From the NCBI RefSeq assembly GCF_044324785.1, contig NZ_CP172127.1: a stretch of DNA of 64,000 nucleotides; one strand, given 5' to 3'. The translations under genes and the position numbers were made by a program. The notes under the pieces are model-generated. The model worked only from the letters and a program-made list of their open reading frames with translations, had not been told where the DNA came from and did not search any database. Each line of letters begins with the position of its first letter. Position 1 is the first letter of the stretch. This stretch comes from Escherichia coli (lineage in GTDB: Bacteria > Pseudomonadota > Gammaproteobacteria > Enterobacterales > Enterobacteriaceae). This document shows positions 4,797 to 34,921 of the stretch, one piece after another.

Positions 4797-5962
<1,166 letters not shown>

Positions 5963-6083
5963 TTGACCATTATTACAGACCGGACCATCTTAATATCCGG
6001 TCAGTATATAGACTATTTTTTACACGCCGGAAGTCACCATTAACCCCCTTCCGGCCCTTGCCAGACGGCACAAAGGATGCGCT

Positions 6084-9000: not shown

Positions 9001-9200
9001 ATCTCAATGAAGAGGCGGCGAAACGCTATATTCGCACGTCTTTAAAACGCGAATACGCCACCGAAAATGGCACGGAATTAAACGAGACATTGCCAAAACT
9101 CAGTCCGTTAAATCCGCAATATAAGACGAAAAAACAGACGGTTTTCCAGAAGATCGTCGCGTTTATTGAGAAGTTTAAAGGTGTAGGCGGGCAGATATAA
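6084..9200 (+). CDS. hsdR: Type I restriction enzyme endonuclease/translocase subunit HsdR (type IC-like)
   Basis: 1038 aa; superfamily-2 helicase motifs TGSGKT (Walker A) and DECHRSQ (DEAH box), N-terminal nuclease region; AAGGA ribosome-binding site; follows hsdMS as in type IC loci. Confidence 0.9.
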
Positions 9201-9619: not shown

Positions 9620-10567
9620 TCAAGCATTCAGGATGGATAACGCTAAGCTCCTAAACCTGGAGTAAGCCTCATCCCATGTGATCTTTCGCTCTCCATACAC
9701 CATTGGCGAAACAAACTGCTGATAGCGCATCTGGTAGAGAGGATTGTTCGCCAGCTCATCCAGTCCCATTTTTAGCTCATCAACTGGAGACGCGCAAAAC
9801 TGCGGGTACTGGTTGCCGTAACGTTGAATGTCCTGCTCAATAGTTTGTTGAACAAAATCAACGAGCAGACTCATATCAACATGACTCGTCTCAACAATAC
9901 AGTTTGTATCGTAGATATGACGTACCAGCGATGCATCATCAAATCGCTCAACATCTCGCACAACTGCCGCAGTACGGCGTAACATCGCCACCAGCTTTTC
10001 AGCCTGTGTGCTAATGATAGTTGCGCATGGAAACGCTGAAACAATAGCCGCTTTTCCCGTGATCCCTGTTACCAGTGAATGAATATCCCGTAATTCAGAA
10101 GGCTCCAGTAACTTCGCTTCCATCAATTCCAGCCGGATAAAAGGACGCAAACAAGGTGCCTGCACCACTCGCTGTGGATAACGAACAGGTATGTCATTAT
10201 AACGATATTCATCCCGCGTCACTTTTGGGTAATCATCATCAAAATTGAACACACCCGATGAAGCTATTGCACTGGAAACTGCCTGAACAATTTCTTTACG
10301 GGTATTTTTTCGCTGAGTGCGGGAAAGTGCCTGAAATGCATCCTTAGGCACCAGTTTGATATCCACATCTTCCGACATGCGATTAAGTGCGACACCTGAT
10401 TTTGCCAGAGCGGTTCCTCCGGCAAACACCAATTGATGAGTATCGAACACCAGAGGTTTAAGCAATTGCAAAAGCTCAACGATATAGTGATCTTTTTCCA
10501 CAATTGCGACAGACTCAATACCAAGCGCGTCAGCCACTTCAGAAAAAAGAGTGGTTAAATCATCCAT
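9620..10567 (-). CDS. AbiEii/AbiGii-family nucleotidyltransferase toxin (type IV toxin-antitoxin / abortive infection)
   Basis: 315 aa; nucleotidyltransferase-fold motif LVFAGGTAL near the N-terminus; overlaps the upstream small wHTH gene by 8 bp, the typical AbiEi-AbiEii arrangement. Confidence 0.7.
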   Translation of the reverse strand: MDDLTTLFSEVADALGIESVAIVEKDHYIVELLQLLKPLVFDTHQLVFAGGTALAKSGVALNRMSEDVDIKLVPKDAFQALSRTQRKNTRKEIVQAVSSAIASSGVFNFDDDYPKVTRDEYRYNDIPVRYPQRVVQAPCLRPFIRLELMEAKLLEPSELRDIHSLVTGITGKAAIVSAFPCATIISTQAEKLVAMLRRTAAVVRDVERFDDASLVRHIYDTNCIVETSHVDMSLLVDFVQQTIEQDIQRYGNQYPQFCASPVDELKMGLDELANNPLYQMRYQQFVSPMVYGERKITWDEAYSRFRSLALSILNA

Positions 10568-16953: not shown

Positions 16954-17739
16954 TTAGGAATTAAATGTCCAGCTACCCGTATCGGTCACAATGTCAGCTT
17001 CAATGATACGGTCACACTTCATATATTTGAACGTAGCCACATCACCGAATTTATATTTAGCTGGCAGGGTTCTGTTACCGGCGCTCTCCATTTTACAGTT
17101 CCCTCTGTTTACCCGAATGGATTTCAGCACCACGTTGTCATCAGTGATAGTGAGCTGAATAACACCATATTTGGTATTCCAGCCTTCATTACTGACGGAG
17201 CTGCCGAACTGAACTTTAAATGGTGATGTCGTAGGTTGCTGTGCCTGCTGTTGTTGAGAGGGAGCAGGTTTATTTGCCTGCTGGCTACCAACGCTATTAA
17301 TGCCATTCTGAAGGAGGCTTCTGGAAACCTTAATGGTACCCGGCTTGCATGATACTGTGCTGGTTTCCTGCCCCATTGCATTCATGACAGTGTAATAAGC
17401 ATCACCTGTACCATCATATTCTGAGTAATTGACTGCAACCGCGCCTTCGATATCTTCATTTTCTCCACGTAATGTGAAAGAAGCGGTTCCTGCTCCCGGA
17501 TTAGCCGCCAGAGTCTGTTTCGCTTCGCCGGAAGGAATATCCAGTTTAATAACAGAGCCGCTCTCTTCGGAGTCACCGCCAGGATTTTCAAAACTGATAT
17601 AAACGGTATTGCTGACGTGGCTGAGTGTCATTTGCTCACCGTTATCAAGCAGACATTGCAGGTCATAGGCCCCGACAGCATAAGCAGGGTGGAATGCAAA
17701 TAAAGATACAAACAATACAGGTATAATGATTGGTTTCAT
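16954..17739 (-). CDS. Secreted/periplasmic hypothetical protein with signal peptide and Gln/Pro-rich linker
   Basis: N-terminus MKPIIIPVLFVSLFAFHPAYA-VGAY fits a Sec signal peptide with AYA cleavage site; two predicted domains separated by SQQANKPAPSQQQQAQQPTT; 12 bp downstream of the GTPase gene on the same strand. Confidence 0.6.
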   Translation of the reverse strand: MKPIIIPVLFVSLFAFHPAYAVGAYDLQCLLDNGEQMTLSHVSNTVYISFENPGGDSEESGSVIKLDIPSGEAKQTLAANPGAGTASFTLRGENEDIEGAVAVNYSEYDGTGDAYYTVMNAMGQETSTVSCKPGTIKVSRSLLQNGINSVGSQQANKPAPSQQQQAQQPTTSPFKVQFGSSVSNEGWNTKYGVIQLTITDDNVVLKSIRVNRGNCKMESAGNRTLPAKYKFGDVATFKYMKCDRIIEADIVTDTGSWTFNS

Positions 17740-17751
17740 TAAGCACTTTCC

Positions 17752-18765
17752 CTATCCAAAAAAATGGTCCCAGGCATTACCAGCCCACTCGATAAGTTTG
17801 TCTTTCCCCTTTCGGGTAAGCTCTTTGACAGGCTTTGGTAACGGAAAAGAATCAATAACGTCGTCGAGTATCCCGGAGATTACGCTGCCAAAGCCGTTTT
17901 TTGCTTCCGTCTTTACTTCGTCGGTTTTGAACTCATCCTTAACCTGCGAAGCCGTGCTACTTTTAGCCCGATCAGGCAAAGCCCGAATAATAGTCTCTAC
18001 CAGACGAAGAATGTTGTAGCCCTCATCGGCGGAGACAGGTGTCACCGGATAGTGCGTAAAACCAAATCGTTCAGTAATGTAGGCTTCTTTCTTTTCGATG
18101 TTGATGCGCTGTGCAGGAGATGGCTGATGCAGATGAGTATCCCACTCGCGGAATGGCTCAATTTTATCAACCTGGTTAAGGACGAATAAAACGCGCTCAC
18201 CCCCACCAGCAGGGAGCAGAACATTGTTGTAGAAATGCTCATCCGCAGAAAAGGCCCGATCGTCTCCTTTTATTACCCACAGGATGAGATCCAGGGAGGG
18301 AAGCAAATTACGGTATAAATCTTCATACTCCTTATCCCGCCGGGCATTCTCACCGACACCAGGTATATCAATGATCTTCAGCGAGTGTTTGCCGAAGCGT
18401 ATACGCAATTCCTGAACTTCACGAGTACATGCCTCAACGTCGCTAACTGCACAAACCTCCCCTTTAAACAACGCATTACATACACTACTTTTCCCCGCGC
18501 CTGTTTTTCCCATGACACCAATTACGGGTTCATAGTCGATGGCTTCACTGATTTTGTTCAACAGCTTTTCCCGCAGTGGCTGAGGGAAAATATCAAGAAT
18601 ATCCCTGATGTCAGGTATGTGCGGCTTGCTATCACCTTTTTGCTCGTTGCTACCATTACGTTCTGGAAATATATTGCTCCACATTCCCAAAATCCCGCCT
18701 TCCCTTCTGGTGACGCCACTGGCATCAGTAATCATCCGGCCTTCGCCCTTTACCGGGTCATCCAT
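17752..18765 (-). CDS. YeeP/YkfA/YfjP-family GTPase (50S ribosome-binding GTPase domain)
   Basis: 337 aa; P-loop GVMGKTGAGKSS, DxxG-type switch II IIDIPGVGE, and NQVD (NKxD) motif; AAGGAG ribosome-binding site 9 nt upstream of the ATG. Confidence 0.8.
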   Translation of the reverse strand: MDDPVKGEGRMITDASGVTRREGGILGMWSNIFPERNGSNEQKGDSKPHIPDIRDILDIFPQPLREKLLNKISEAIDYEPVIGVMGKTGAGKSSVCNALFKGEVCAVSDVEACTREVQELRIRFGKHSLKIIDIPGVGENARRDKEYEDLYRNLLPSLDLILWVIKGDDRAFSADEHFYNNVLLPAGGGERVLFVLNQVDKIEPFREWDTHLHQPSPAQRINIEKKEAYITERFGFTHYPVTPVSADEGYNILRLVETIIRALPDRAKSSTASQVKDEFKTDEVKTEAKNGFGSVISGILDDVIDSFPLPKPVKELTRKGKDKLIEWAGNAWDHFFG

Positions 18766-18803: not shown

Positions 18804-19520
18804 TTACTCTCTGAAGGTCTGAATTACGTCACTTATGAAACGAAAGTGAGGGAGGGCTGAAATGAACTCTTCACTGGCAGTCAGAGCATCAAGTTCAGGC
18901 TTTCTGCGAAAAGAGGTATCCAGAACGGTTACGGCATTAACGTCTTCCATCCGAAACACCTGTAAATTTCTGGTGCGGGTAGCAACAAGAAACCAGTTTT
19001 TGGATTGAAATATCAAACGGCGGGGAGCTACTGCTTCGTAGCTTTTACCGTTAACTAATAATGTAACGGCGCGGTAGTCGCGGATAGCTTCCGCCAGTTC
19101 CAGAAAACAGGCGGTTTGTGTAACTGGAGATGGCAGCCCTCCATGCCCTATAAGGCACGGCGAGCTTCCGGAGTTACTGGTAATCAGTCGAATTAACCTG
19201 CGATTCTGAGCCGGAATAATCCCTGAAATCCCGGAATTACGGATAAACGCAAAGGTGTTGGGTGAGTGCTCCCAGCCCGTTCGGCGGATAAGTCGGTAGC
19301 TTCCGCTGGAATGCTCGAGATCCAGATGGATCAGGCGTTGCTGAAAATCCCGCTGTAGGGTGCGTTCTGAGACACCAAATTCATCAGCTAATACTTTAAG
19401 CTCCAGAGATTCACCAGCCAGTAAGCGGCTGATAATGACTGATAGCCTGACAGACAGGCGGTCATGATGATCATGCTGTGTTTTCATGGTGGGGACAGTC
19501 CTGTTCTCCCAAAATATCAT
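18804..19520 (-). CDS. YfjR-like transcriptional regulator (HTH plus WYL-like domain)
   Basis: N-terminal HTH region (LKVLADEFGVSERTLQRDF); the ORF track begins at a TTG at 19574 and in-frame ATGs lie at 19520 and 19487, so the start is uncertain. Confidence 0.55.
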   Translation of the reverse strand: MIFWENRTVPTMKTQHDHHDRLSVRLSVIISRLLAGESLELKVLADEFGVSERTLQRDFQQRLIHLDLEHSSGSYRLIRRTGWEHSPNTFAFIRNSGISGIIPAQNRRLIRLITSNSGSSPCLIGHGGLPSPVTQTACFLELAEAIRDYRAVTLLVNGKSYEAVAPRRLIFQSKNWFLVATRTRNLQVFRMEDVNAVTVLDTSFRRKPELDALTASEEFISALPHFRFISDVIQTFRE

Positions 19521-20062
19521 GGTATTGATACGGGAGATTATGCCGTACAGGTACGACACGTTATGTCGTACCAAAGGGGAGTGGATAGAAAAAATGGCGA
19601 AGATGCGAAAAGTTTATTAATGCATTGAAAAAGATGAATTAATAATGAACTTGGGTAAAAGCGCCATCAAAATACGACACGACCTGTCGTATTTTGTGTT
19701 AGCCGGGAAAGGATATCTGCTACTTACTAAAATGATTTAGTGCTGAAAATATTTGTAAGCCAATAAATAGACCGGTATTACGGAGTAACGCCCAGGCTAT
19801 GTTAACGAGCCCGCTGTTTTATTGGCTCAAAAAACATATCCCAGAGATGATCAGCCATACCCTCGTTAGTGAGCAAGGTATCCCTTGAGTAGCCATGGCT
19901 GAAGACGCCCATTGATGGGCGAAAACCAAGGTTCTGGCCGTTAGAACAGTTATGTCGTTAAACACATCACCACCATATGCCATCCGGCTCACTTCGTCGG
20001 CCAAATTAGTGTGATATTCTTTTCAGAATTCCTGTTGTATCCACAACATAAGGCGATGATTG

Positions 20063-23000
20063 ATGGAACAGTCTCTCAATTTTGAAATGTTGCGCAGCCA
20101 GTGGCCGGAACTGGCTGAACTCGCGTGTATGGCGGAACGCTATGTTCACTCCGATCCGGAAAGCTGCCTGGTTAAGCTGCGCAACTACACCGAATTGATG
20201 GTGCGCTGGTTGTATCGTCAGGAGCGGTTGCCGGAAGGTATTAAGGCTAATCTTTACGATTTAATGAATGCTGATGTCTTTACCAGCATGATGCCGGAAG
20301 CCATCATCATGAAAATGGATGCGCTGCGTATCCATGGCAACCGTGCCGCGCACGGCGGACGTATCAAAGCTAAAGATACCTACTGGCTGCTCAAAGAAGC
20401 GTATTTGTTGGGAATTTGGCTGTATGTTCGCTACGCCCACGGTAATGTTGATGACTGCCCCAAATTTACACTCCCTCCATTAACACAATCTTCAGGTCGT
20501 GCAGATGAAAAACGTCTGGAAGATGCAATCAAGGCTCAGGATGAAAGCCGTGAGCGCGAACTGGCGCTACAACGCGCACTACAGCAAGAACAGGAAAAGG
20601 CCGAACACCTCACTCAACGCCTGAATGAAGCCAGAGCGCGTAACCAGCATGTTGCCGATATTCTCTCTATTGATGAAGCTGAAACCCGCCGTCGCCTGAT
20701 TGACTCTCGCCTGCTTGCTGCTGACTGGAATGTAGGCGAAGAACTTAAAAATACCGATCAGGTTACACAGGAACATCCAGTTAAAGAACAGCCTACCGCT
20801 ACCGGTGACGGTTATGCGGACTATGTCTTGTGGGATGAGGCACACAAACCGCTGGCGGTGGTGGAAGCAAAAAAAACCAGCGTCAATGCCGAGCAAGGAC
20901 GAATTCAGGCCCGGCTGTATGCAGACTGGCTGGAAAAAGAATACGGTCAGCGTCCGGTCATCTTCTACACCAACGGTTACGATATCTGGCTGTGGGATGA
21001 CCATAAAACTCATGGTTATCCCCCGCGTCGGGTGTTTGGCTTCTACAGCAAGGAAAGCCTGCAATATCTTATTCAGCAGCGTGAAACCCGTCTACCGCTG
21101 AACAGTGTGCCGCACGTAAAAGACAACGAAGGTAAGGCCGTTGCCGGACGTTTGTACCAGCTTGAAACCATTGCCCGCGTTAGCGAACGGTTTACCAATA
21201 AATATCGTCAGTCATTAATCGTTCAGGCCACCGGCACCGGTAAAACCCGTGTAGCGATTGCACTGAGCAAACTGATGATTGATGCCCGCTGGGTAAAACG
21301 AGTCCTGTTTCTTTGCGACCGCAAGGAACTACGTAAACAGGCGGCGAATGCCTTTAATCAATTCACCAATGAGCCGCTGTATGTGGTCGGGAAATCGAAG
21401 AAAGCAGACAGGCAGAATGCCAGGATCTACATCGCCACCTATCCTGGTATGATGAAAATCATGGACCATTTCGATGTCGGTTATTTCGATTTGATCATCG
21501 CCGATGAATCCCACCGCTCTATCTACAACGTCTACGGCGATCTGTTTAAGTATTTTGATGCCCTCCAGATTGGCCTGACGGCCACGCCGATTGACATGGT
21601 GAGTAAAACCACTTTCGGCCTTTTTGGTTGTGAAGGACGTATTCCTACCGCCAACTACAGCCTGGAAGATGCCATCGCCGATAACAATCTGGTTCCCTAT
21701 GAGGTTGTCACACACACCACAGAATTCCTGCGCGAAGGCATCAAACGGGAGAAATTAAGCGACGCACAAATCCGCGAGCTGGAAGAACAAGGTATAGATC
21801 CCAATACGCTGGAGTTTGATGGCAAGGCGCTGGATGAGGCGATCTACAACAAAGACACCAACCGCTATATCCTGCGTAACCTGATGGAAAATGGCCTGAA
21901 AGATCGGGACGGCCAGTTGCCAGGTAAAACCATCATTTTCGCCCGTAACCACAAACACGCGCTGCTGTTGAATGAATTGTTCGACGATATGTATCCGCAG
22001 TTTGCCGGACGCTTCTGCCAGGTCATCGACAACTACGATCCCCGCGCCGAGCAACTGATTGATGATTTTAAAGGGCTGGATGAAAGCACCAACAAAGAGC
22101 TGACCATCGCTATCTCTGTTGACATGCTCGATACCGGTATTGATGTCCCGGAGATTGTGAATCTGGTCTTTGCCAAACCGGTCAAATCAAAAGTGAAGTT
22201 CTGGCAGATGATTGGCCGTGGTACGCGCCTCTGTCCGGGGTTGTACGGTTACGACGATAACGGCAAACCGCTGGATAAACAGAAATTCCGCATTTTCGAT
22301 CACTGGGGCAATTTTGAGTATCACGAGCTGCATGCCGAAGAGGCCGAAGTCACAGCGACAAAATCGCTTGCACAAAAACGCTTCGAAGCGTGGGTTATGC
22401 TGGGGGCCGCTGCGCAACGTAAATTCGACAAACAGGCGGTGGATTTAGTTGCTCACCAGCTTCGCGAGCAAATCAACGCACTGGATGAAAAGTCGATTGC
22501 CGTACAGGAAAAGTGGCAGCAAAAAGCGCAGTACAGTGATGAAAAGGTGCTGCGCCAGCTTTCTCCGAAAACACAGCAGGATCTGCTATCTATTCTAGCC
22601 CCGCTGATGCAGTGGCTGGACGTGCGCGGGCAAAGCGATGCCATACGCTTTGATATGGATATTCTGGCGGCGCAAACTGCCCGTTATACCAACCCGGAAG
22701 AGCTGGATGTGCTCTGGCCGGCCATCGTCGAAAAAGTGGAGCGCCTGCCGCCGCATTTGGCGCAGGTGCAGCAACAGGGACAACGAATCAATCAGCTTCG
22801 TGATCTAGGCTGGTGGAAGCAGGCCAGTCTGGAAGAGCTGGAGGATATCCGCATTCATTTGCGCGGTATCATGCACCTGATGGAAAAAGACACGACGCCG
22901 AAATTTGGTTCGATACAGGTGGATATTACCGAAGATGCGAACCTGATCCAGACGGAGACCCGCAAAACCAACATCCGTTCGATTGATTTCAAACTCTATC

Positions 23001-23476
23001 GCCAGCAGGTTCAGGGGGCGCTGGAGCCGCTGTTCCAGCAAAATCCGGTGCTGAAGAAAATCCGCAACGGCGAGCCAGTCACGCAAAACGAGCTTGATGA
23101 ACTGGCGAAGCTGGTGCTGATCCAGAACCCCAACGTTGATATCCGGGCACTGAAAGAGTTCTATCCGCAGGCAACCGCCAGCCTGGATAAACTTTTGCGT
23201 ACCATCATCGGGATGGACAGCGACGCGGTGGAAGTGCGCTTTGCTCAGTTCGCCGCTGATAACAGTCTAACCAGCCAACAACTGCGCTTCCTGTCATTGC
23301 TGAAAAACCACATTCGCGATTACGGCACCATTGAAATGCGGCAGCTCTTTGAACAGCCTTTTACGCATATCCACAACGAAGGCGTTACCGGTGTGTTCCC
23401 TGATATAGAGCAGATCGCCCGCCTGCAAAAGATAGTCGAAGAGCTGGGTGTTGTGACCGACGCAGCGACGGTATAA
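20063..23476 (+). CDS. hsdR: Type I restriction enzyme HsdR subunit (second type I system; family not assigned)
   Basis: ~1137 aa; motifs GYADYVLW...LAVVEAKK, Walker A QATGTGKTR and DEAH-like IIADESHRS; first ATG at 20063 (ORF track begins at an upstream TTG). Confidence 0.9.
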   Translation: MEQSLNFEMLRSQWPELAELACMAERYVHSDPESCLVKLRNYTELMVRWLYRQERLPEGIKANLYDLMNADVFTSMMPEAIIMKMDALRIHGNRAAHGGRIKAKDTYWLLKEAYLLGIWLYVRYAHGNVDDCPKFTLPPLTQSSGRADEKRLEDAIKAQDESRERELALQRALQQEQEKAEHLTQRLNEARARNQHVADILSIDEAETRRRLIDSRLLAADWNVGEELKNTDQVTQEHPVKEQPTATGDGYADYVLWDEAHKPLAVVEAKKTSVNAEQGRIQARLYADWLEKEYGQRPVIFYTNGYDIWLWDDHKTHGYPPRRVFGFYSKESLQYLIQQRETRLPLNSVPHVKDNEGKAVAGRLYQLETIARVSERFTNKYRQSLIVQATGTGKTRVAIALSKLMIDARWVKRVLFLCDRKELRKQAANAFNQFTNEPLYVVGKSKKADRQNARIYIATYPGMMKIMDHFDVGYFDLIIADESHRSIYNVYGDLFKYFDALQIGLTATPIDMVSKTTFGLFGCEGRIPTANYSLEDAIADNNLVPYEVVTHTTEFLREGIKREKLSDAQIRELEEQGIDPNTLEFDGKALDEAIYNKDTNRYILRNLMENGLKDRDGQLPGKTIIFARNHKHALLLNELFDDMYPQFAGRFCQVIDNYDPRAEQLIDDFKGLDESTNKELTIAISVDMLDTGIDVPEIVNLVFAKPVKSKVKFWQMIGRGTRLCPGLYGYDDNGKPLDKQKFRIFDHWGNFEYHELHAEEAEVTATKSLAQKRFEAWVMLGAAAQRKFDKQAVDLVAHQLREQINALDEKSIAVQEKWQQKAQYSDEKVLRQLSPKTQQDLLSILAPLMQWLDVRGQSDAIRFDMDILAAQTARYTNPEELDVLWPAIVEKVERLPPHLAQVQQQGQRINQLRDLGWWKQASLEELEDIRIHLRGIMHLMEKDTTPKFGSIQVDITEDANLIQTETRKTNIRSIDFKLYRQQVQGALEPLFQQNPVLKKIRNGEPVTQNELDELAKLVLIQNPNVDIRALKEFYPQATASLDKLLRTIIGMDSDAVEVRFAQFAADNSLTSQQLRFLSLLKNHIRDYGTIEMRQLFEQPFTHIHNEGVTGVFPDIEQIARLQKIVEELGVVTDAATV

Positions 23477-23539: not shown

Positions 23540-25174
23540 ATGATCACTGGTGACTTAAAAAGTAAAATCGACGGCCTGTGGGAAGATTTCTGGGTGGGTG
23601 GTATCACCAACCCGCTGACCGTAATCGAACAGATCACCTACCTGATGTACTCCCGGATGCTGGATACCCAGGAACAACGCGACGAGAAGCGTAAACAAAT
23701 CGCGGGTATTGATTTTAAACCGCGTTTTGCGCCAGAACAGCAGGAGTTCCGTTTCAGTCACTATAGCAACCTTGGCTCGGATGAGATGATGGAAGTGGTG
23801 CGCGATGGCGTATTCCAGCATTTTCGTCAGCTCGGCCTGGCTGATACATCAAAGGTGACGCTGCTGGGCAACTTTATGAAAGATGCCCGTCTGGAGATTG
23901 TTAAGCCGTCATTGCTGACCAAAGCGGTTGAGGTGATCAAAAACCTGCCATTGGATCGCGGCGATACCAAAGGCGACCTTTACGAATACCTGTTAAGCAA
24001 GCTGACCACTGCCGGGATCAACGGCCAGTTCCGCACGCCACGCCACATTATCCGCACGATGGTTGAAATGATGGAGCCGAACCCGGCCCGCGGCGAGATG
24101 ATTTGCGATCCGGCCTGTGGCACCGGTGGTTTTCTGGCAACCAGCTATGAATATCTGCTGGAGAAGTACAGCTCGCTGGAATCCATTCATACTGAGATTG
24201 GCACCAACGAACGTGGCGAGCTGGAAGAGCAAAAAATCTTTACCGGCGATCTGCTGATACCGTGGCGTAACCATGTGGATAACAATATGTTCCACGGTTA
24301 CGACTTTGATACCACAATGCTGCGTATCGCCGCCATGAACCTGATTATGCACGGCGTGGAAGCGCCGGATATTCACTATCAGGACACCATGAGCCAGAGC
24401 TTCAGCACTAACTTCCCTCAGGCAAGTAAAAACGCTTTCAACCTGATTCTGGCGAACCCGCCGTTTACCGGTTCACTGGACGAGGAAGATATCGACTCCA
24501 CGCTGTCGGCAATGGTGAAAACCAAAAAAACTGAACTACTGTTCCTGGCGCGTATTCTGCAAATGCTGAAAGTGGGCGGGCGCAGTGCCACTATCGTGCC
24601 GCAGGGCGTGTTGTTTGGCTCCAGTAAGGCGCACCAGTCACTTCGCAAAACGCTGGTGGAAGATAACCAACTGGAAGCGGTGATCAACCTGCCTTCCGGT
24701 GTATTTAAGCCTTACGCTGGCGTGGCAACGGCTATCCTGATCTTTACCAAAGGCGGTCAGACGGACGAGGTCTGGTTCTACGATCTGCAAAATGATGGCT
24801 ACAGCCTGGATGACAAGCGTAACCCGATTAAAGACAACGACCTGCCGCATCTGCTGGCAAGCTGGAAGCATTACCGTACTTTGCGTGGTTTGCCGGTAGA
24901 TAACTTTATGGGTGAGAAGTTAGCCTCGTTGCTTAAACAGCAGTACCCGGAAGGGATTGATGCTGGCGTTGATTTTAAAGATCGCACTCAGTCGGCGTTC
25001 GTAGTTCCAAAAGAAGATATTGCTGCGCAGAAATACGATCTCTCTATTAATCGTTATAAAGAAGTGGTGTATCAGGCGGAGGAATATGAAGATCCGAAGG
25101 TGATACTGAAACGATTAAAAGATCTGGAAAAAGAGATTCTGGCGGATTTGGATGAGCTGGAGGGGATGCTGTGA
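23540..25174 (+). CDS. hsdM: Type I methyltransferase subunit HsdM (second system)
   Basis: 544 aa; FRTPRHI, AdoMet-binding DPACGTGGF and catalytic NPPF motifs. Confidence 0.9.
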
Positions 25175-26349
25175 GTTGGCCGATGGTGAAGTTAGGCGAA
25201 ATTTTTACTATATCTCGAGGGGGGTCTCCAAGACCTATTCAAGATTATATTACTGACTCCTGTCATGGAGTAAATTGGATAATGATTGGTGATACTGAGC
25301 CAAATTCAAAATACATTAGACATACAGCAAAAAAAATAAAGTTTGAAGGAGTGAAAAAATCCAGAAAGGTCTACCCTGGAGATTTATTACTTACAAACTC
25401 TATGAGTTTTGGGCGTCCATATATACTTGATGTTGAAGGATGTATACATGATGGATGGTTGGTTCTAAGTCCTAAAAATAATCAAATACATATTGATTAT
25501 TTTTATCATTATTTAAATTCTCCAGCTGCAAAAATCATCATATCAAACAAGGCTGCTGGTGCAGTTGTAAAAAATTTGAACTCAGATATCGTGAGAAACT
25601 TGGAAATTCCGTTCCCTCCATTTGCGGAACAGGTAAGGATAGCTTCAACTCTCGATAAAGTCGATGGCATACGTCAAAAACGCGACCAAGCCATCAAACT
25701 GGCTGATGATTTTTTGCGTGCTACGTTTTTAGCGATGTTTGGTGATCCTGTTGAAAACCCGAAGAGATGGGATGTTGCTTCTTTGTTAGAATATGGTTCA
25801 TTTAAAAATGGAATGAATTTTACGAAAGGTGAGTCAGGCTCTGTACTGAAGTGCCTGGGAGTTGGCAATTTCAAATCACTAGCAACGATTACCTGTATGG
25901 ACAATATCGGTGAAATTGAATTAAATACTCTCCCTTCAGATGATTATCTTTTGAAAGATGGTGATATCGTCTTTGTCCGTTCTAATGGTAATAAAGCCTT
26001 GGTCGGAAGATGTCTTACTATTTATCCAGGCAAAGAGAAAGTTACATTTAGTGGATTTTGTATCCGCTACAGAATAGAAAATACTGCAATCACCCCAGAA
26101 TATCTTAACTTTCTCTTCCGTACACCTTCAATGAAACAGCAAATGTTAAGCGGGGGGCAAGGAGCGAATATTCAGAATATTAGCCAAGGTACCTTATCCG
26201 CACTCAGGATACCAGTCCCTCCCTTAGAAAAACAACAGGCATTTTCTAAAGTAGTGAGTTTTCACTCGGCACTAATGGAAAAACTAGATATTAATACAGT
26301 TGAAATAGAAGATATGTTTGACTCAATCAGTCAACAATATTTTAATTAA
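25171..26349 (+). CDS. hsdS: Type I specificity subunit HsdS (second system)
   Basis: 392 aa; start overlaps the hsdM stop (GTG at 25171, or ATG at 25183); two AT-rich variable regions plus conserved HsdS helices. Confidence 0.85.
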   Translation: MSWPMVKLGEIFTISRGGSPRPIQDYITDSCHGVNWIMIGDTEPNSKYIRHTAKKIKFEGVKKSRKVYPGDLLLTNSMSFGRPYILDVEGCIHDGWLVLSPKNNQIHIDYFYHYLNSPAAKIIISNKAAGAVVKNLNSDIVRNLEIPFPPFAEQVRIASTLDKVDGIRQKRDQAIKLADDFLRATFLAMFGDPVENPKRWDVASLLEYGSFKNGMNFTKGESGSVLKCLGVGNFKSLATITCMDNIGEIELNTLPSDDYLLKDGDIVFVRSNGNKALVGRCLTIYPGKEKVTFSGFCIRYRIENTAITPEYLNFLFRTPSMKQQMLSGGQGANIQNISQGTLSALRIPVPPLEKQQAFSKVVSFHSALMEKLDINTVEIEDMFDSISQQYFN

Positions 26350-26370
26350 TCAGGATTATTATTAATAAAA

Positions 26371-27057
26371 ATGAAAAAAATTGATATGCGAATACTGGTC
26401 CTGTTTATACTGGCCGTAATGCCTTTGTTGCCCTATCTTTATATTTTTCATGAAGGTTTTTCCCATAAGTCTGATGATTGGGGTAATTTTGGTTCTTTTA
26501 TGGGAGGAGCCGTTGCTCCTTTCCTTTCGGTACTGAGTATAGTATTGGTTTTGAGAACAATTGAATTAACTCAAAAGAACCATGCCGAGCAACTATCACA
26601 AGTAACAAAAGAGCATAACTACAATAAATTCAATGATCTGTGCGATTTCCTTGAAAAATCTATATTAAAGAGTTGGTTGGTTAATGATAAAGAAAGACGA
26701 CAACAGGTTATCCAGTCTTTAACAATAACAACTATTGGTGATGTCGTTTTTCGTTCTAATGAAAATGCGACACCTGAAGAACAACGTCGGTATGCAGAAG
26801 AAAATGCACAAAGAGTATTGTCATTCATGTCAGATGATATCAGAGAAATAATAGTTTGCCTCGATTATTTTTGTGACTTTATCCTGGATGATAAAAATCA
26901 TGATACTGAATTCATGAAAAATATCGCAGAAATAAGGCTGGATAATCATGTTCGATTCATTATATCTCTATATGTTTACCTAAATAATAAAAATTTAAAT
27001 CTATTATTAAATAAAAAATGGAAGAGCTTTAGACCATCTATAGACGAGTTGGTATAA
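26371..27057 (+). CDS. Hypothetical 2-TM membrane protein (228 aa), same strand and 22 bp downstream of hsdS
   Basis: Two predicted N-terminal transmembrane helices (ILVLFILAVMPLLPYLYIF; FMGGAVAPFLSVLSIVLVL) followed by a ~165-aa soluble domain; very AT-rich. Confidence 0.6.
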   Translation: MKKIDMRILVLFILAVMPLLPYLYIFHEGFSHKSDDWGNFGSFMGGAVAPFLSVLSIVLVLRTIELTQKNHAEQLSQVTKEHNYNKFNDLCDFLEKSILKSWLVNDKERRQQVIQSLTITTIGDVVFRSNENATPEEQRRYAEENAQRVLSFMSDDIREIIVCLDYFCDFILDDKNHDTEFMKNIAEIRLDNHVRFIISLYVYLNNKNLNLLLNKKWKSFRPSIDELV

Positions 27058-27097
27058 CTATTGTCCCGCCAATTGTTTTATAATTGGCGGGATGTCA

Positions 27098-30000
27098 TTA
27101 TTTTTTGAACTCAACCAGTCTCTTATATTGGGGGGTATTAATTAACTTTTTCTTAGCTTTGATAATATCGACCAAACAGATTTCTATTTCCTCAGCACAT
27201 CCTCGTTGATTATCCATAATCAAACTGATAAGTTCTAATGTTTGAGATGGAAATTTATTTGGTATCTCTGACTCGTATAATTTTTTCAGTGTATAATGAG
27301 GCCATTCAAATGGAATGATCCACGGTTTTACAGTATCGAATATATCCTGAAACCTATCCTGGCCCGCAATACAGAGTTGCACTAAATTCTCTGAAATTCC
27401 CGGCGTCCTTAACTTTTGAGATTTTGGCCATATCTTCTTTAAAAATATTTTTATACAGTTATCCCAATATTCAGAATATTGTTCTCCTGAGCTTTCAATT
27501 GCATCTACAAGAGTATTAGTTGAGATTATCAGGCTCTCCGATGGAAGATTTCTAAACGCTTTTTGATAATCGTCAAGAACATAGTCTTTTGTCGGTTCAA
27601 GTGCAGCATATGTCAAAAAGATAGTATATTGTTTTTTAGCATCAGTATCTCCAAGATCTTGATAGTGTTCCGCTGTTTTCAAAAAAGCTTGTTTAAATGC
27701 AGCAAGCAATGGGGCATAAAGACGAGGGGTCCATAAGAAACCAGGCCATACTGATTTTGCTTCAAGAAAATTACTATCCCAAATAAATAATGGTAGAAGG
27801 TACTTTTTCGCCCAATTTGTGTCAACTCTGAATAATGGGATCAAATTTGAGGCTAAAATAACTCTGGAATTTCTGAAAGAGATATTATGGGTGTCACATA
27901 GCTTTGTGAAAAAGACTTTCAATTTATCTGGTATGCCCTCATTATCATGCGGCTTACCATTGAGCCATATATTTATTAATGCTTGTGTAATATTTCCTAC
28001 AGGATGATTTATAGCTTGTATTATTGATTTATAATCATCTGTTTCATCGTAACTAAAATCTATAATACGCTGACAATATGTAGTATAAACATCATTCAAC
28101 TCACTCATTCCTGTGGAAATTTTCGCTAACCATTGAGCGAGGCTGTGCTGAATCTCAGGGAATAAATCATCTGGAATATTTAATAATAATGGTCCTATTT
28201 CTTGCCAGGACTCCTGAATCAGGTCTTTATCACACCAAGTCTGTAAACCTGAACGCCAATATTTGCATGGCCAAATATCCTCCATGGCTAATTCGCGAAG
28301 CACACAAACAATCATCGGTAAGTTTTGTTTACATATTTCGATCCAGTTATCACGTTCAAACGGAGATGATTTCTTATTATCAGCCCTTTCTCTTAACCAG
28401 TTGATGATGCCGTCCTTTGTATCTGGGACCATTTCTGTAATTATTTCCTCTTCAAAATCGGGATCTCCTGTTCCACTCATCCAATGCGAAAATTCGTCTC
28501 TTTCATTTGTGGTCAATTTCCAGTAAGGATGTTTTTCTGATAAAAAATCCAATTTGTTCTGTGCATTTATATTGAGCTTTACACCTGAAAATTGTAGTTT
28601 TGATAAGAACAACCATATATTTCTTTCGACTATATTTTCCCATTCATTCTCATTAATAGAAATATTGAATAATTCCTGTGAATATCCTAGTGTTATTGCA
28701 TTTTCAAGCTTTCGTTGTTCAATGGCAGTTAGTGTTTTACCTTGCAAAACGAAGAGTCGGCAAACTTCACGATGAGTATCAATAGCCCACAACCAATAGC
28801 CATTTTGTTCCAGTAATAGATTCACCCATTCTTTAGCATCAATGCATTCATTATAACTGGCAGAAAAAATGACCAAACGCTTAAATACTGGATATGGAAA
28901 TGACCACCAATTTAAAGCAAGTTTTTTAGCTTTGTTTTTATCTATTTCATAGATTTGCAACCAAGAATCTCTCAAAAGTTCAATTAGTTTCACCCAATTA
29001 CGATAACCTCTATTTTGCCAATGAGGCGTAATTGATGGTAAGTCCCAAAAAGATCGATCACTTGCACTTATGGAATTATCATTCAGTTCAAATTGTAAAT
29101 CCATCGCATCAAGAAGTAATTGTTGAAGATCATCAAACAAGGATGGCAAGATTTCCTTCCATATTGATTTATTTTCTAAATCTTGTAGCCAATAAAGATC
29201 TGTTGATATATTTAATTCATGCCTTACAGATTGTGAAATATTTTTTTCATTTTGGGATGATTTATTAAAATTTAGTTGAAAAGGTTGTTGCAGGATAAGG
29301 GTAGGCGCTAAAATTTTTCTTAGCGCTAACCGGCAAGCCATATTGAAATTGCCATGTTGAAATTGATCTATCCAATAATTATTTTCATATACAGATGAAT
29401 TGGTCCCTATTCTTCCTGCTAAGAATAAACGCCAAATAGCTCGTAAATTCTGAGATGGGATCGCATGTAGTCCTTCTTGCTTGATACGTTTGAGAGACTG
29501 CTCCTCATTGTTTCTTTCTAATCGTTCAATCTCACTCAACCTATTACTTATTAAATTTGATAACTGGGGATGCAGTTTTCCCCCTTGCTTTGCTAACCAA
29601 ATGATTAAGTCAACGTTACCAATATGTTTTATCAGCCATAAACAAATATATACCATAACAGAATCCCACTGACAAAATTCGCCACCAAAAGAAGCTAAAC
29701 TCATTCGTGGTGAAAGTTTGTATGAGGAAGGGCGATTAATCAGGCTAAATTGAAGATTAGGATCAAATTCAGAATGGGCCGGGGTATTAAAGCGAGGTAG
29801 ATCTGGATATCTATAAGATTTTTTTTCAAATTCCCATAACCAACTTAGTGTGGGAGCAGGATTCATTTCTGCCAGGCGTTTTGCGGGCTTACCGGAATTA
29901 TCACTTAATGCCCATAAAACCCTTCCAACAAAATTATCCTCTTGAGTACTTGTCGAAGGATGGGCAATTACATATTGGGCTACAATTCTTTCTTTACCCA

Positions 30001-30889
30001 TACTTCCATTGTTATATATTTCTCCCCATATTTTTAATGTCTCATGAAGTAATTCATGCTTCTTAGTCGTTTTGTACAAAACAGGAATGACCCCTTTGGC
30101 TTCCCAAATTTCAGCCGTTGTAGATTCTTCATTTGGTTTATAATCTGCAAAGGCATATGCTTGAGGGGTATATTCGCCTAACATCCTATCTGCTGCTAAA
30201 GCATCCATCATATAGCGTAATACAGGATCATTAATACTATATCCTATAAAACAAACAACATAGTTTCTAAATAGTTCACTTACAAATCTGGCAGCCCATC
30301 TTTCTGTTAAATAAGCACATCCGAAATCACCACTGGTAACTACCAGACGGTTCAACTCTGTATGATTTTTTTTATCATGAGGTAATATTCCGTGCAAGTA
30401 AACCACTCCATTCCATCTACTATTTTTTGGAACAGGTAACATAGGTGCCAAATATGATGTTAGTTTCTTCTCCATATTTTTCGCAGCTATGTCAAAAAGA
30501 TGATCAAAATTTGTGGTGACAAGTCGTATGCGCCCACCTTGATCTTGAGATAATTGTAAGAGAGCATTATGAGTTGTTAGGGCATTTTTTCTTCGAACCT
30601 TTGGTTTCAATATCTGAGACAATGCATAGCGTACAGTTTGTTTATTTCCTACTATTCTTCTCTCAAGAAGTTCTAATGTTGTATCATATTGGTAAGCTTT
30701 ATAGGCGGCTTCTTCGAGAGCATTCCGTGTTTCACCGATTCTTTGATATATGTTGTCAACCAAATCTCCAAACCCCGGTAATCCAGCAGGATATGAAATT
30801 CCCGCTCCGCAGAAGAATACAACTTTCCCCTCTTCGTGTGCTTGTAGTAATGAATCGGGAATATCTGGACCATTAGTAATAAACTGCAT
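27098..30889 (-). CDS. Large SIR2-domain protein (1263 aa): N-terminal sirtuin-like NADase domain plus ~1000-aa helical C-terminal region; candidate defence-associated sirtuin (DSR-like) single-gene defence protein
   Basis: N-terminal Rossmann motif VVFFCGAGISYPAGLPGFGDL (GAGIS), TTNFDHLF (TTN-D motif) and a conserved His in VYLHGIL, as in SIR2/DSR/ThsA NADases; no similarity to housekeeping CobB is evident; monocistronic on the minus strand. Confidence 0.7.
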   Translation of the reverse strand: MQFITNGPDIPDSLLQAHEEGKVVFFCGAGISYPAGLPGFGDLVDNIYQRIGETRNALEEAAYKAYQYDTTLELLERRIVGNKQTVRYALSQILKPKVRRKNALTTHNALLQLSQDQGGRIRLVTTNFDHLFDIAAKNMEKKLTSYLAPMLPVPKNSRWNGVVYLHGILPHDKKNHTELNRLVVTSGDFGCAYLTERWAARFVSELFRNYVVCFIGYSINDPVLRYMMDALAADRMLGEYTPQAYAFADYKPNEESTTAEIWEAKGVIPVLYKTTKKHELLHETLKIWGEIYNNGSMGKERIVAQYVIAHPSTSTQEDNFVGRVLWALSDNSGKPAKRLAEMNPAPTLSWLWEFEKKSYRYPDLPRFNTPAHSEFDPNLQFSLINRPSSYKLSPRMSLASFGGEFCQWDSVMVYICLWLIKHIGNVDLIIWLAKQGGKLHPQLSNLISNRLSEIERLERNNEEQSLKRIKQEGLHAIPSQNLRAIWRLFLAGRIGTNSSVYENNYWIDQFQHGNFNMACRLALRKILAPTLILQQPFQLNFNKSSQNEKNISQSVRHELNISTDLYWLQDLENKSIWKEILPSLFDDLQQLLLDAMDLQFELNDNSISASDRSFWDLPSITPHWQNRGYRNWVKLIELLRDSWLQIYEIDKNKAKKLALNWWSFPYPVFKRLVIFSASYNECIDAKEWVNLLLEQNGYWLWAIDTHREVCRLFVLQGKTLTAIEQRKLENAITLGYSQELFNISINENEWENIVERNIWLFLSKLQFSGVKLNINAQNKLDFLSEKHPYWKLTTNERDEFSHWMSGTGDPDFEEEIITEMVPDTKDGIINWLRERADNKKSSPFERDNWIEICKQNLPMIVCVLRELAMEDIWPCKYWRSGLQTWCDKDLIQESWQEIGPLLLNIPDDLFPEIQHSLAQWLAKISTGMSELNDVYTTYCQRIIDFSYDETDDYKSIIQAINHPVGNITQALINIWLNGKPHDNEGIPDKLKVFFTKLCDTHNISFRNSRVILASNLIPLFRVDTNWAKKYLLPLFIWDSNFLEAKSVWPGFLWTPRLYAPLLAAFKQAFLKTAEHYQDLGDTDAKKQYTIFLTYAALEPTKDYVLDDYQKAFRNLPSESLIISTNTLVDAIESSGEQYSEYWDNCIKIFLKKIWPKSQKLRTPGISENLVQLCIAGQDRFQDIFDTVKPWIIPFEWPHYTLKKLYESEIPNKFPSQTLELISLIMDNQRGCAEEIEICLVDIIKAKKKLINTPQYKRLVEFKK

Positions 30890-31038
30890 CTCGTTGCCTG
30901 GTTAGTTTGTGAAATGAATTTTGATTATAAATCTTCTTTATTGGTTCATGTAAGAAATCGGCACTGCCTTTTGACCGATAGCTGATATAGTATGTCTAAG
31001 TTATGATGATATAACATTTCTTACCTTGGATAGTAACA

Positions 31039-32004
31039 ATGCCTTTAGATTTAAGTAAAACTTTAGTTATTGGCATCAGCGCGACTGCGCTTTTTGATAT
31101 GAGTGAATCAGATCACATGTTTCGCGAAACCTTTGTGACTGATCCTGATAGCGCCATTGAAAAATACCGCGCTTATATGCTAGAACACGAAAACCAACCT
31201 TTACAGCCCGGAACAGGCTACCCCTTAGTCAAAGCGTTGCTGGGTCTGAACCAGTACCGTCAACCGGATGATAAATCGCCGTTGGTTGAGGTTGTTGTGA
31301 TGTCACGTAACAGCCCTGATACCGGTATCCGTGTTCTGAATACTATTCGCCATGACAGGCTCGATATCACTCGATCGGCCTTTACGGCAGGCGAAACCGT
31401 TGCCGATTACCTTGATGCCTTTGATGTGGATCTGTTTTTAACGACCAACGTCGAGGATGCGCAAAAGGTGATTGATTCCCGATTCTGCGCCGCTGCAATC
31501 CTGAAAGATCCTCCTTCCGACGCATCTGATATCCCGGAAGGGCAAGTGCGCATTGCTTTTGACGGCGACGCGGTACTTTTTTCCGATCAAAGCGAACTGG
31601 TTTATAAGACCCAAGGAATGGCTGCCTTTCATGCTCAGGAAGACGCGCAGCAGGATATCCCTATGGAAGAGGGGCCTTATGCCACTTTGCTAAAAAAAAT
31701 AGCCAAGCTTCAGGAACGATTGCCGACCCGCGTTGAGTATTCTCCTGTTCGTATTGCGCTGGTGACAGCCCGAAATAGCCCTTCGGAAATGCGCGTTATT
31801 AAAACGCTAAGAAGCTGGGGGGTATATGTCGATGAAGCTTTTTTTCTTGGCGGTGTAGAGAAAACAAAAGTTCTGAAGGCGTTTAAGCCACACATTTTCT
31901 TTGACGATCAGGATGTACATTTGATCGCGGCTGCAAAGGTAGTACCTTCTGGTAAAGTACCTTATGCCAGTAACTCCGAACTGGCAGAACGTGAAGCATC
32001 GTGA
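31039..32004 (+). CDS. HAD-superfamily 5'-nucleotidase-like protein (321 aa)
   Basis: HAD motif I-like FDGDAVLF (DxDxV); overall resemblance to the bacterial/eukaryotic cytosolic 5'-nucleotidase family from memory; divergent from the SIR2 gene with a 149-bp intergenic region. Confidence 0.55.
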   Translation: MPLDLSKTLVIGISATALFDMSESDHMFRETFVTDPDSAIEKYRAYMLEHENQPLQPGTGYPLVKALLGLNQYRQPDDKSPLVEVVVMSRNSPDTGIRVLNTIRHDRLDITRSAFTAGETVADYLDAFDVDLFLTTNVEDAQKVIDSRFCAAAILKDPPSDASDIPEGQVRIAFDGDAVLFSDQSELVYKTQGMAAFHAQEDAQQDIPMEEGPYATLLKKIAKLQERLPTRVEYSPVRIALVTARNSPSEMRVIKTLRSWGVYVDEAFFLGGVEKTKVLKAFKPHIFFDDQDVHLIAAAKVVPSGKVPYASNSELAEREAS

Positions 32005-33172: not shown

Positions 33173-34441
33173 TCACTCGCCATTACCCCGATTGATCTTC
33201 GCATAGTCAAACGGCGTAATCGCTCTCTCCCGATTCGCATCCAGAAAATCGGCCCACCACTGCAACATCAGCTTGCGCTCATCCAGATGTTCCGCTTTAT
33301 GGATATACGCCGCTCGCACCGAATTGCGCTCCATATGACTCATCTGTCGTTCCACCGCATCCTTCGACCATAACCCGGACTCAATTAACGAGCTACAGGC
33401 CATTGTGCGGAAGCCGTGGCCGCAAACTTCAACCTTAGTGTCATAACCCATCACCCGTAGCGCACTGTTCACCGTGTTTTCACTCATGGGCTTACGCGGA
33501 TCGTGATCGCCAATAAAAATCAGCTCATGCTCACCACAGAACTGCTTTATCTGCTTCAGGATCGCCAGCGCCTGCTTTGAAAGCGGCACCAGATGCGGTG
33601 TGCGCATCTTTGTTCCTCGCTGAGAATGTTTCACGCCGGGAATCGGTTCTCGCTCAGGAGGGATGGTCCACATTGATGTTTCAAAATCGATCTCTGACCA
33701 ACGAGCAAAACGCAGCTCACTGGACCGAATAAAGATAAGCAGAGTGAGTTCTGTCGCCCAGCGGGTTAGCGGCCTGCCGGTATAGCCGTCTATTTTCTCA
33801 AGCAACTCAGGGATGCGCTTTAACTCCAGCGCCGGACGATGCTGTCGATTACTGGAAGCAACCGCCCCCGCCATCTCTTGCGCCGGATTGTAATCAATTA
33901 ACCCGCTTTGCACTGCATAACGCATGATGGCCGTGGTGCGCTGTTGAAGGCGGGAAGCCACTTCAAGGCGTCCGGATTTCTCCACGGCTTTAATAGGAAT
34001 TAACAGATCGCGGGTGCCTAGTTCAGCAATATTGCGAGTACCAATTGCCGGGAAGATATTGTCCTCCAGGCTCTTTTTTACACGATTAGCATGATCTTCC
34101 GACCATTTTTGGTTGGTTACGAACCACTCTCTGGCAACCTTCTCGAAAGTAATAATCTCTTTCGCCTGCTCTTCTTTCACAGCACGCTTATGCTCACGAG
34201 GATCGATACCAGCAGCTACCAGCTTTCTGGCCTCTTCCCTTTTCTTCCGCGCATCCGCCAGTGAAACATCCGGGTAAACGCCGAACGCCATCAAATGTTG
34301 TTTACCGCCAAAACGGAAACGAAATCGCCAATACTTTGAACCGCCAGGTTTTACAAGTAAGGACATGCCGTCGCCGTCAACAAGTGAATACTCTTTCTCC
34401 TCTGGTTTCGCAGAACGAACTTTAGTATCCGTTAGGGCCAT
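33173..34441 (-). CDS. intB: P4-family tyrosine integrase (IntB-like), adjacent to the tRNA-Leu 3' end
   Basis: 422 aa from MALTDTKVRSAKP...; catalytic-domain motifs of phage integrases (HGFRTMA..., HxxR region); followed by a hairpin plus U-tract terminator at ~33088..33131 on the minus strand. Confidence 0.9.
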   Translation of the reverse strand: MALTDTKVRSAKPEEKEYSLVDGDGMSLLVKPGGSKYWRFRFRFGGKQHLMAFGVYPDVSLADARKKREEARKLVAAGIDPREHKRAVKEEQAKEIITFEKVAREWFVTNQKWSEDHANRVKKSLEDNIFPAIGTRNIAELGTRDLLIPIKAVEKSGRLEVASRLQQRTTAIMRYAVQSGLIDYNPAQEMAGAVASSNRQHRPALELKRIPELLEKIDGYTGRPLTRWATELTLLIFIRSSELRFARWSEIDFETSMWTIPPEREPIPGVKHSQRGTKMRTPHLVPLSKQALAILKQIKQFCGEHELIFIGDHDPRKPMSENTVNSALRVMGYDTKVEVCGHGFRTMACSSLIESGLWSKDAVERQMSHMERNSVRAAYIHKAEHLDERKLMLQWWADFLDANRERAITPFDYAKINRGNGE

Positions 34442-34640
34442 AGTGGTCTTCCTTCCATTGGTATCTCGTGAGTATACAAGCAATATCGAATCGGCAAATA
34501 TACTCATTAGTATACTCACAAGCCTGTTGATGTGGGTTGAGTCAGGTTGACTTCAGTTGAGGAGAAAAGCTGGAAAAGCCTTGTGTAGCGCGGATTTCAG
34601 GCATAAAAAAAGACCTCAGTTGAGGTCTATTTACATACTT

Positions 34641-34725
34641 TTGGTGCCGAAGGCCGGACTCGAACCGGCACGTATTTCTACGGTTGATTTTGAATCAACT
34701 GCGTCTACCGATTTCGCCACTTCGG
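34641..34725 (-). tRNA. leuX: tRNA-Leu (anticodon CAA), leuX
   Basis: Reverse complement reads GCCGAAGTGGCGAAATCGGTAGACGCAGTTGATTCAAAATCAACCGTAGAAATACGTGCCGGTTCGAGTCCGGCCTTCGGCACCA, an 85-nt type II tRNA with CAA anticodon and CCA end. Confidence 0.97.
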
Positions 34726-34921
34726 CACTGAAGAGGTATGCGGAAAACGTTGTGGATTATACCTGTCGCACGCCACCATGCAAGCGCCAGCTTGCTCGCA
34801 CCTCGCTAAGTGCTGAAATTTTCAGCATTGCATACAGCGATGTGTAACCTTTGTCACACTCCAGGCACCCCGCCCTGCCATGCTCTACACTTCCCAGACA
34901 ACACCAGAGAAGGACCAAAAA

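Follow-up and report, generated by a model that had tools for sequence, protein, structure and literature searches.

The window analyzed here is a stretch of 64,000 nucleotides from the Escherichia coli contig NZ_CP172127.1. The gene under study, ORF228, is a 228-aa coding sequence on the + strand (26371–27057) that follows a type I restriction–modification (R-M) system. The genes of that system, hsdR (20060–23476), hsdM (23540–25174) and hsdS (25171–26349), are all on the + strand and form the left frame of a slot for variable cargo genes. The right frame is a 5′-nucleotidase gene (31039–32004, + strand; PF06189, the PADLOC single-gene candidate PDC-S08). Besides ORF228, the slot in the window holds dsr1, a SIR2 defense gene on the − strand (27098–30889; PADLOC Dsr1, E = 0), as an optional second cargo. 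From substitution rates, orthologs and an AlphaFold2 (AF2) model, ORF228 is predicted to encode an inner-membrane protein of an AbiC/AbiP-like superfamily. Our preferred reading, held with moderate confidence, is an AbiC/AbiP-like protein that excludes phages autonomously and has its anchor in the inner membrane. Functional coupling of ORF228 to restriction is unsupported.

The position of the frame, as originally predicted, is confirmed in the sequence: it begins with an ATG 22 nt past the hsdS stop, which ends at 26349. ORF228 is a real gene under constraint, because the chance of a stop-free frame of 228 codons at its base composition is ~2e-8 (our own calculation from base frequencies) and because its ratio of nonsynonymous to synonymous substitution rates (dN/dS) is 0.13–0.20 in pairwise comparisons of six lineages, which indicates purifying selection. 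It is less constrained than the neighboring genes (dN/dS 0.02–0.05), and its dS exceeds theirs. It had also been described as extremely AT-rich, and its G+C content is indeed 32.6%, when the window as a whole has 46.7% and hsdR and hsdM have 51%. A homolog search found close homologs restricted to Salmonella, E. coli and Klebsiella grimontii. An antisense frame of 69 aa (26619–26828) accompanied by an antisense promoter-like site was considered and rejected; shuffled sequence holds more promoter-like sites. An Rfam scan around ORF228 gave only sub-threshold chance matches. The idea that ORF228 is one half of a toxin–antitoxin pair was rejected because there is no small gene that could be its partner. 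A holin was taken to have one to three transmembrane (TM) helices in about 70–150 aa and to lie in a lysis cassette beside an endolysin. ORF228 was rejected as one: it is 228 aa long, of which 165 aa form the cytoplasmic domain, its neighbors are defense genes, and no lysis gene is nearby.

Two N-terminal TM helices followed by a cytoplasmic domain of ~165 aa had been predicted, and hydropathy and the AF2 model agree with that description. TM helix 1 spans residues ~8–26 (26392–26448, + strand, as are all positions within the gene), where AF2 places helices at 2–16 and 19–25. TM helix 2 (TM2) spans residues ~42–62 (26494–26556) by both hydropathy and AF2. K/R-rich stretches border the hydrophobic segments at the N-terminus and past TM2, in keeping with an N-in/C-in topology that puts the ~165-aa domain in the cytoplasm. 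The model is all-alpha with a mean predicted local distance difference test (pLDDT) score of 87.7, and in it TM2 runs on as a single helix, residues 34–99, into a cytoplasmic helical bundle. The remainder, residues 63–228 (26557–27054), is predicted by AF2, Foldseek and alignments to be an all-alpha cytoplasmic domain with an isoelectric point (pI) of 5.4. The superfamily signature, S31..D36-W37-G-N-F40-G41-S..G46...P50 (26461–26520), was recognized in alignments and by hhalign and covers the short periplasmic loop between the helices together with TM2's outer half. An alignment of 46 diverse superfamily sequences has W37, G41 and G46 in every one, and S31 and F40 in nearly all. The residues conserved in the cytoplasmic domain of the ORF228 family itself are TQxNHxEQ (67–74), E81, R195, W217 and F220.

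The connection to abortive-infection proteins comes from profile and structure comparisons. When 1.84 billion representatives were searched with a profile at E ≤ 1e-3, 3,519 cluster representatives (clusters at 50% identity) were recovered. Most of these proteins are 200–350 aa long, and the match covers only residues ~1–80 of ORF228. Seven of the 46 diverse members match Pfam putAbiC (PF16872), a model of 80 positions that lies over the C-terminal domain (residues 252–320 of the putAbiC-type protein P0173) and not over the TM module. One member, P0059, matches both the AbiP (7.5e-9) and the AbiC (1.1e-5) models of PADLOC, and P0049 and P0125 have weak PADLOC matches to AbiP. When the ORF228 family alignment (A3) was compared by hhalign with an alignment of 11 putAbiC-type proteins (A6), the full-length comparison gave a probability of 99.7% (E = 7.8e-26), and that of the N-terminal 2-TM modules only gave 99.8% (E = 1.6e-29). 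By these alignments, the 2-TM modules of ORF228 and of putAbiC/AbiC/AbiP-type proteins are clearly homologs. A Foldseek search of AFDB50 with the ORF228 model returned the Salmonella ortholog at the top and then nearly all 'phage abortive infection protein' entries, in full-length alignments with TMq of 0.61–0.75 and E of 1.5e-5 to 1e-4. Searches of the PDB and of a viral structure library with the same model returned nothing informative. As modeled, the overall architecture of ORF228 is the same as that of AbiC-type proteins. A resemblance to abortive-infection effectors, suggested originally from the sequence alone, is thus borne out by both the homology of the 2-TM module and the fold matches.

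Several observations weigh against the reading of ORF228 as an autonomous AbiC/AbiP-like protein. It matches no PADLOC family at E ≤ 0.1, the AbiC and AbiP models included, and has no match in NCBIfam. Pfam, including putAbiC, gives no match at E ≤ 10 for either ORF228 or its Salmonella ortholog. An hhalign comparison of the C-terminal domains only gives E = 0.022 and a probability of 2%. Lactococcal AbiC itself may lack the WGxFG motif; the PADLOC AbiC match to P0059 starts at TM2. The mechanisms of AbiC/P are themselves still unclear (PMC13064643). At pI 5.4, the cytoplasmic domain is mildly acidic, which is a weak argument against AbiP-like nucleic-acid binding. Two further points come from the locus. 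hsdS stands immediately before every close ORF228 ortholog, in the same orientation, which makes a lineage-specific functional tie possible, and in a second allele class, described below, a spacer hairpin may limit read-through from hsdS.

Since the C-terminal domain that defines the Pfam family is undetectable by sequence, ORF228 is, on that evidence, classed as a divergent variant of putAbiC and not as a member. The link to AbiC runs through putAbiC-type relatives rather than through lactococcal AbiC itself, which was not retrieved when plasmids were searched by tblastn with the putAbiC-type protein P0173. Among PHROGs, ORF228 matched only two families of unknown function, both confined to the N-terminal part. 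The Salmonella Havana ortholog, A0A3V3U0X5 (P0006), is named 'DUF4760 domain-containing protein' in UniProt, a label that was not reproduced by a Pfam-A scan (no match at E ≤ 10). Literature searches on putAbiC and on P2-EC45 found nothing, and a bioRxiv item on 'AbiC' was set aside because it actually concerns the unrelated Abi_C/AbiJ domain.

According to a 2026 review, AbiC consists of two TM helices and an extra-membrane domain, which can be superimposed on AbiP, and the two proteins are placed in one group, 'AbiC/P' (PMC13064643). Once phage DNA has entered, they act on the production of capsid protein, on replication and on the transcription switch, and membrane disruption is not known as their mode of action (PMC13064643). 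For ORF228, too, nothing in the analysis supports the membrane-disrupting role that was suggested originally. ORF228 shares with this group the character of a small single-gene membrane protein with N-terminal TM helices (two in AbiC), an extra-membrane helical domain and carriage on mobile elements. It differs in its want of a sequence-detectable putAbiC domain and of a PADLOC AbiC/AbiP match, in its Gram-negative host, and in its own TQxNHxEQ, R195, W217 and F220 motifs. It is also shorter: 228 aa compared with the 306 positions of the PADLOC AbiC profile. AbiC is about 344 aa long.

By analogy with AbiC and AbiP, we infer an anti-phage role in which ORF228 would act from the membrane after infection and stall phage development. 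The W-G-x-F-G...G...P loop/TM2 module would be a shared anchor, oligomerization or sensing unit, and the fast-evolving cytoplasmic domain would carry the specificity or effector activity. Such a role would be a likely assignment for a 'hypothetical protein' that current Pfam, NCBIfam and PADLOC models miss. The AbiC/AbiP superfamily is also far larger than one would gather from its Pfam model, and what it conserves is the N-terminal 2-TM module rather than the C-terminal domain that the model covers. ORF228 would be a tractable E. coli member for the study of AbiC-type action, which is unsolved more than 30 years after these proteins were discovered.

The locations of the relatives bear both on function and on the tie to R-M. 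Distant relatives, taken from diverse reference genomes, are solitary, and their only recurring neighbors are a phage integrase directly upstream (4 loci) and tandem paralogs (3 loci). P2-like prophages also house relatives of ORF228. Two of the four full-length relatives at 23–34% identity, P0033 and P0036, lie in the CI/int lysogeny operon region of P2/186-like prophages. A third (P0032) is at a P2-like attachment site, and the fourth (P0034) is amid hypothetical genes and transposase remnants. A further relative is ORF1 of the Z region of P2-EC45, annotated 'lysogenic conversion'. The P2 Z region carries the T5-exclusion gene fun(Z). In tandem paralog pairs, two 2-TM AbiC-like genes stand within ~1.5 kb of each other (L013 8650–9453, L022 8616–9377 and L044 7898–8725).

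These lysogenic-conversion positions, whether downstream of CI/int in P2/186-like prophages, directly after integrases or in the P2-EC45 Z region, raise the alternative of superinfection exclusion of the Sie type. ORF228 would then block phage genome entry at the inner membrane instead of aborting an infection already under way, with the loop/TM2 motif contacting the phage ejection machinery or a host channel. Conservation is highest at residues on the side of the periplasm or the outer leaflet, which suits that idea. However, a simple entry block would not need a large conserved cytoplasmic domain, and the characterized relatives AbiC and AbiP work after DNA entry (PMC13064643). We regard this alternative as unlikely.

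The original prediction placed ORF228 with the type I system as an accessory, and we asked how far the linkage to hsdS extends. All of the close ortholog loci have the same order: hsdR (1137 aa), hsdM (544 aa), hsdS (370–392 aa), ORF228, then either Dsr1 on the opposite strand or nothing, and then the 5′-nucleotidase. The outer flanks vary. Between lineages, HsdR, HsdM and the 5′-nucleotidase are 97–99% identical at the protein level (92% for the 5′-nucleotidase in Salmonella L008), whereas HsdS is 28–68% and ORF228 72–86% identical. The first ~66 codons of ORF228 (26371–26568) fall into two deep allele classes with saturated dS and a dN of ~0.27. These classes co-vary with the 3′ end of hsdS and with the type of hsdS–ORF228 junction (the window versus L001, L004, L008 and L011). 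Since the 5′ allele classes co-segregate with the hsdS allele, tracts of recombination that exchange hsdS specificity end inside ORF228, near nt 196. By sequence, the close ortholog loci are one recombining enterobacterial island lineage, and the linkage of the close orthologs to hsdS is thus one evolutionary observation. Beyond that lineage the linkage is absent. At the 42 loci of distant relatives, no match to HsdM or HsdS lies within 7 kb, and the four full-length relatives likewise lack hsd genes nearby.

The recurrence of ORF228 with its own hsdRMS was counted in a census of 5,426 complete E. coli genomes, in which hsdM was matched at 95–98.5% nucleotide identity. The same hsdM family is present in 424 of the 5,426, and ORF228, sought by sensitive blastn, in 14 of those 424, so that ~97% are without it. 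With 14 of 424 hsdRMS genomes carrying the frame, and none of the 42 and none of the four relatives linked to hsd, the counts do not support ORF228 as a type I accessory. What stands directly after hsdS varies. In 274 genomes it is an AAA ATPase (PDC-M55A/NsnB/AriA-like) with a 298-aa partner. This AriA-like pair is the commonest alternative cargo, and the ATPase matches several PADLOC defense models. In 16 genomes it is a 1093-aa helicase with a ~420-aa protein, and further E. coli cargos are a 529-aa SIR2 protein and a pair of 582 and 88 aa. The cargos found elsewhere in the slot that is 26350–31038 in the window (L058–L063, L070–L072) include several that are unannotated and without a PADLOC match. 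The 5′-nucleotidase is present in 71 E. coli genomes, versus 14 for ORF228, and frames several other cargos as well. The gap from hsdS to the 5′-nucleotidase, or to the island end, is a variable slot with at least five alternative cargos, of which ORF228 is one. Because such varied cargos follow the same hsdRMS, ORF228 is one interchangeable cargo in an hsdS/5′-nucleotidase hotspot. On our preferred reading, it would be a single-gene phage-exclusion determinant, carried as interchangeable cargo at a recombination hotspot of integrase-borne tRNA islands of Enterobacteriaceae. The gap is compact and clearly framed and could be mined for new defense genes of Enterobacteriaceae, and it carries the caution that adjacency to hsdS alone is not functional coupling.

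PrrC and Rlo genes are other defense genes found within or beside type I R-M loci. The statement that type I operons normally end at hsdS, made when ORF228 was first noticed, was too strong, since embedded defense modules such as DarTG2 are known (PMC12255303). At the type I locus that houses DarTG2, the hsdS-proximal site has been described as a defense recombination hotspot (PMC12255303). ORF228 resembles the DarTG2 of the RRDM island of enteropathogenic E. coli, and type I-embedded defense generally, in being an Abi-type gene beside hsdS at a hotspot site, probably on one transcript with it. It differs in belonging to another protein family and in its placement: DarTG2 is between hsdS and hsdR, while ORF228 comes after hsdS at the end of an R-M-S arrangement. 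The hotspots of P2, P4 and integrative islands (Rousset et al. 2022) are similar in having conserved flanks and many defense cargos, putAbiC among the P2 cargos. putAbiC genes are listed among the P2 defense-hotspot cargos (PMC9122126, Table S5). Unlike those hotspots, the ORF228 slot is framed by hsdS and the 5′-nucleotidase within tRNA-Leu, tRNA-Sec and other islands and is not cos-proximal.

A second alternative makes ORF228 a back-up of the type I system, sensing the failure or inhibition of restriction and killing or arresting the cell. Precedents are PARIS, which senses the anti-restriction protein Ocr (PMC9122126), and DarTG2 within its type I locus (PMC12255303), and the frequency of the AriA-like ATPase pair as the commonest alternative cargo is in keeping with them. 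The uniform placement of the close orthologs after hsdS on the same strand suits a back-up too, but it counts as a single lineage and a single observation. The co-variation of the 5′ third of ORF228 with the hsdS allele is likewise explained by recombination tracts ending inside the gene. The 21-nt spacer without a terminator also favors a back-up. The absence of ORF228 from ~97% of the E. coli genomes with the same hsdRMS, and of hsd neighbors from the 42 distant loci and the four full-length relatives, tells against it. We find this alternative very doubtful. A pair of linked wider ideas is similarly a long shot when taken jointly. One is that the 2-TM module is a widespread membrane chassis, which, if true, would make its more than 3,500 clusters, with interchangeable cytoplasmic domains, modular membrane-anchored phage sensors or effectors. 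The other is that the post-hsdS cargos guard the type I enzyme, in which case they would fire once a phage neutralizes restriction, as PARIS does with Ocr.

The hsdS–ORF228 junction differs between the two allele classes. In the window the spacer is 21 nt (26350–26370, + strand) and has no hairpin and no terminator-like or promoter-like site. It contains a weak Shine–Dalgarno-like AGGA, which at 15 nt before the ORF228 ATG is far away. No stable structure forms at the junction (−0.7 kcal/mol, z +0.8), so the earlier observation that no terminator intervenes is correct for this allele. The lack of a terminator before ORF228 is specific to the window allele. In the second class (E. coli L001, Klebsiella L004, Salmonella L008, L011), the spacer is 61 bp (8745–8804 in L001; 9940–10000 in L004, L008 and L011) and holds a hairpin, absent from the window allele, with a perfect 12-bp stem, TTTATTTGGAGG/CCTCCAAATAAA (−19.5 kcal/mol, z −4.6), and GGAGG in its 5′ arm. 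This hairpin may be an attenuator or a transcript-stabilizing element. The proposed co-transcription of ORF228 with hsdMS is therefore plausible for the window allele, where no terminator is found; in the second class the spacer hairpin could attenuate it. From the sequence of the junction, ORF228 is probably co-transcribed with hsdMS in the window allele. There, read-through from hsdMS would give low constitutive expression of ORF228, and the transcript would end at the hairpin downstream.

That downstream hairpin (27062–27094) lies right after the ORF228 stop and is a terminator with a 15-pair stem and a T-run (−21.8 kcal/mol, z −4.4), common to ORF228 on the + strand and the convergent dsr1 on the − strand. 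The Klebsiella allele L004, which lacks Dsr1, has an unrelated terminator hairpin at the same place. A terminator hairpin 3′ of ORF228 is found in the Dsr1-bearing alleles and in L004 (folded for the window and L004 only), which makes the 5′-nucleotidase a separate transcription unit.

This separation bears on whether ORF228 is half of a two-gene system, with either Dsr1 or the 5′-nucleotidase as the other half. The latter pairing would resemble the anti-T7 'HAD hydrolase + 4TM' system of the P4 hotspot (Rousset et al. 2022), in which a membrane protein also stands beside a HAD-type phosphatase/nucleotidase, and PF06189 is HAD-like as judged by HHpred cross-hits in Rousset Table S3. The 5′-nucleotidase is indeed present in every close ORF228 ortholog locus. 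However, its occurrence in 71 E. coli genomes versus 14, framing other cargos too, indicates that it is not the partner of ORF228. The two are parted by a terminator and a gap of 108–211 bp, or by the whole of dsr1. Thus the 5′-nucleotidase is not an obligate partner and does not share an operon with ORF228, which sets the pair apart from 'HAD hydrolase + 4TM'. By eye, the 4-TM protein of Rousset et al. lacks the ORF228 signature motif. As for Dsr1, it is present in the same 14 E. coli genomes as ORF228 (14/14), but it is missing from the Klebsiella and two Salmonella lineages, which retain ORF228. On these co-occurrence counts, ORF228 was rejected as a partner of Dsr1 or of the 5′-nucleotidase, and a two-gene system is highly improbable.

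The island in the window is of the E. coli leuX type and ends with an integrase gene (33173–34519, −) and tRNA-Leu(CAA) (34642–34726, −), with the idn genes beyond the tRNA. At least seven recognized defense genes surround ORF228 in it. This setting matters for the last alternative, that ORF228 is a non-defense membrane protein hitch-hiking on mobile elements, for instance a selfish 'moron' or a protein that serves the envelope or a stress response. In its favor, ORF228 matches no defense model and is less constrained than the neighboring genes (dN/dS 0.13–0.20 versus 0.02–0.05). Its company of defense genes argues otherwise, as do the alternatives in the same slot, which include SIR2/Dsr1 and an ATPase matching PADLOC defense models, and the homology to AbiC/AbiP-type proteins. 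We judge a non-defense role to be quite unlikely.

Several other features of the island and its relatives were observed. A second complete type I R-M system occupies 3240–9200 in M-S-R order (518, 389 and 1038 aa), and convergent with it is an AbiEii gene (9620–10567, −; PADLOC 8.4e-128). A phosphorothioate-binding HNH endonuclease is also in the island. Divergent from hsdR, on the − strand, are a WYL-domain regulator (18804–19574), a LeoA/LeoBC-like GTPase (17752–18765) and an uncharacterized 261-aa protein (16954–17739). This trio is kept across E. coli islands, and its WYL member is a possible regulator of hsdR or of the island. The HsdR of the window is unusually long at 1138 aa, with an N-terminal DUF4145 region (a weak Pfam match) and a C-terminal EcoEI_R_C domain. 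The 5′-nucleotidase is very strongly conserved (dN/dS 0.01–0.05) and is reminiscent of the HAD-type hydrolase in 'hydrolase + 4TM', a validated system. Finally, in strain TUM18781 (NZ_AP023207.1, L002) the whole island, together with the tRNA-Leu and a chromosomal flank (yjgR), is on a 94-kb 'plasmid'. Perhaps a plasmid has taken up this piece of the chromosome, or else the record is misassembled.

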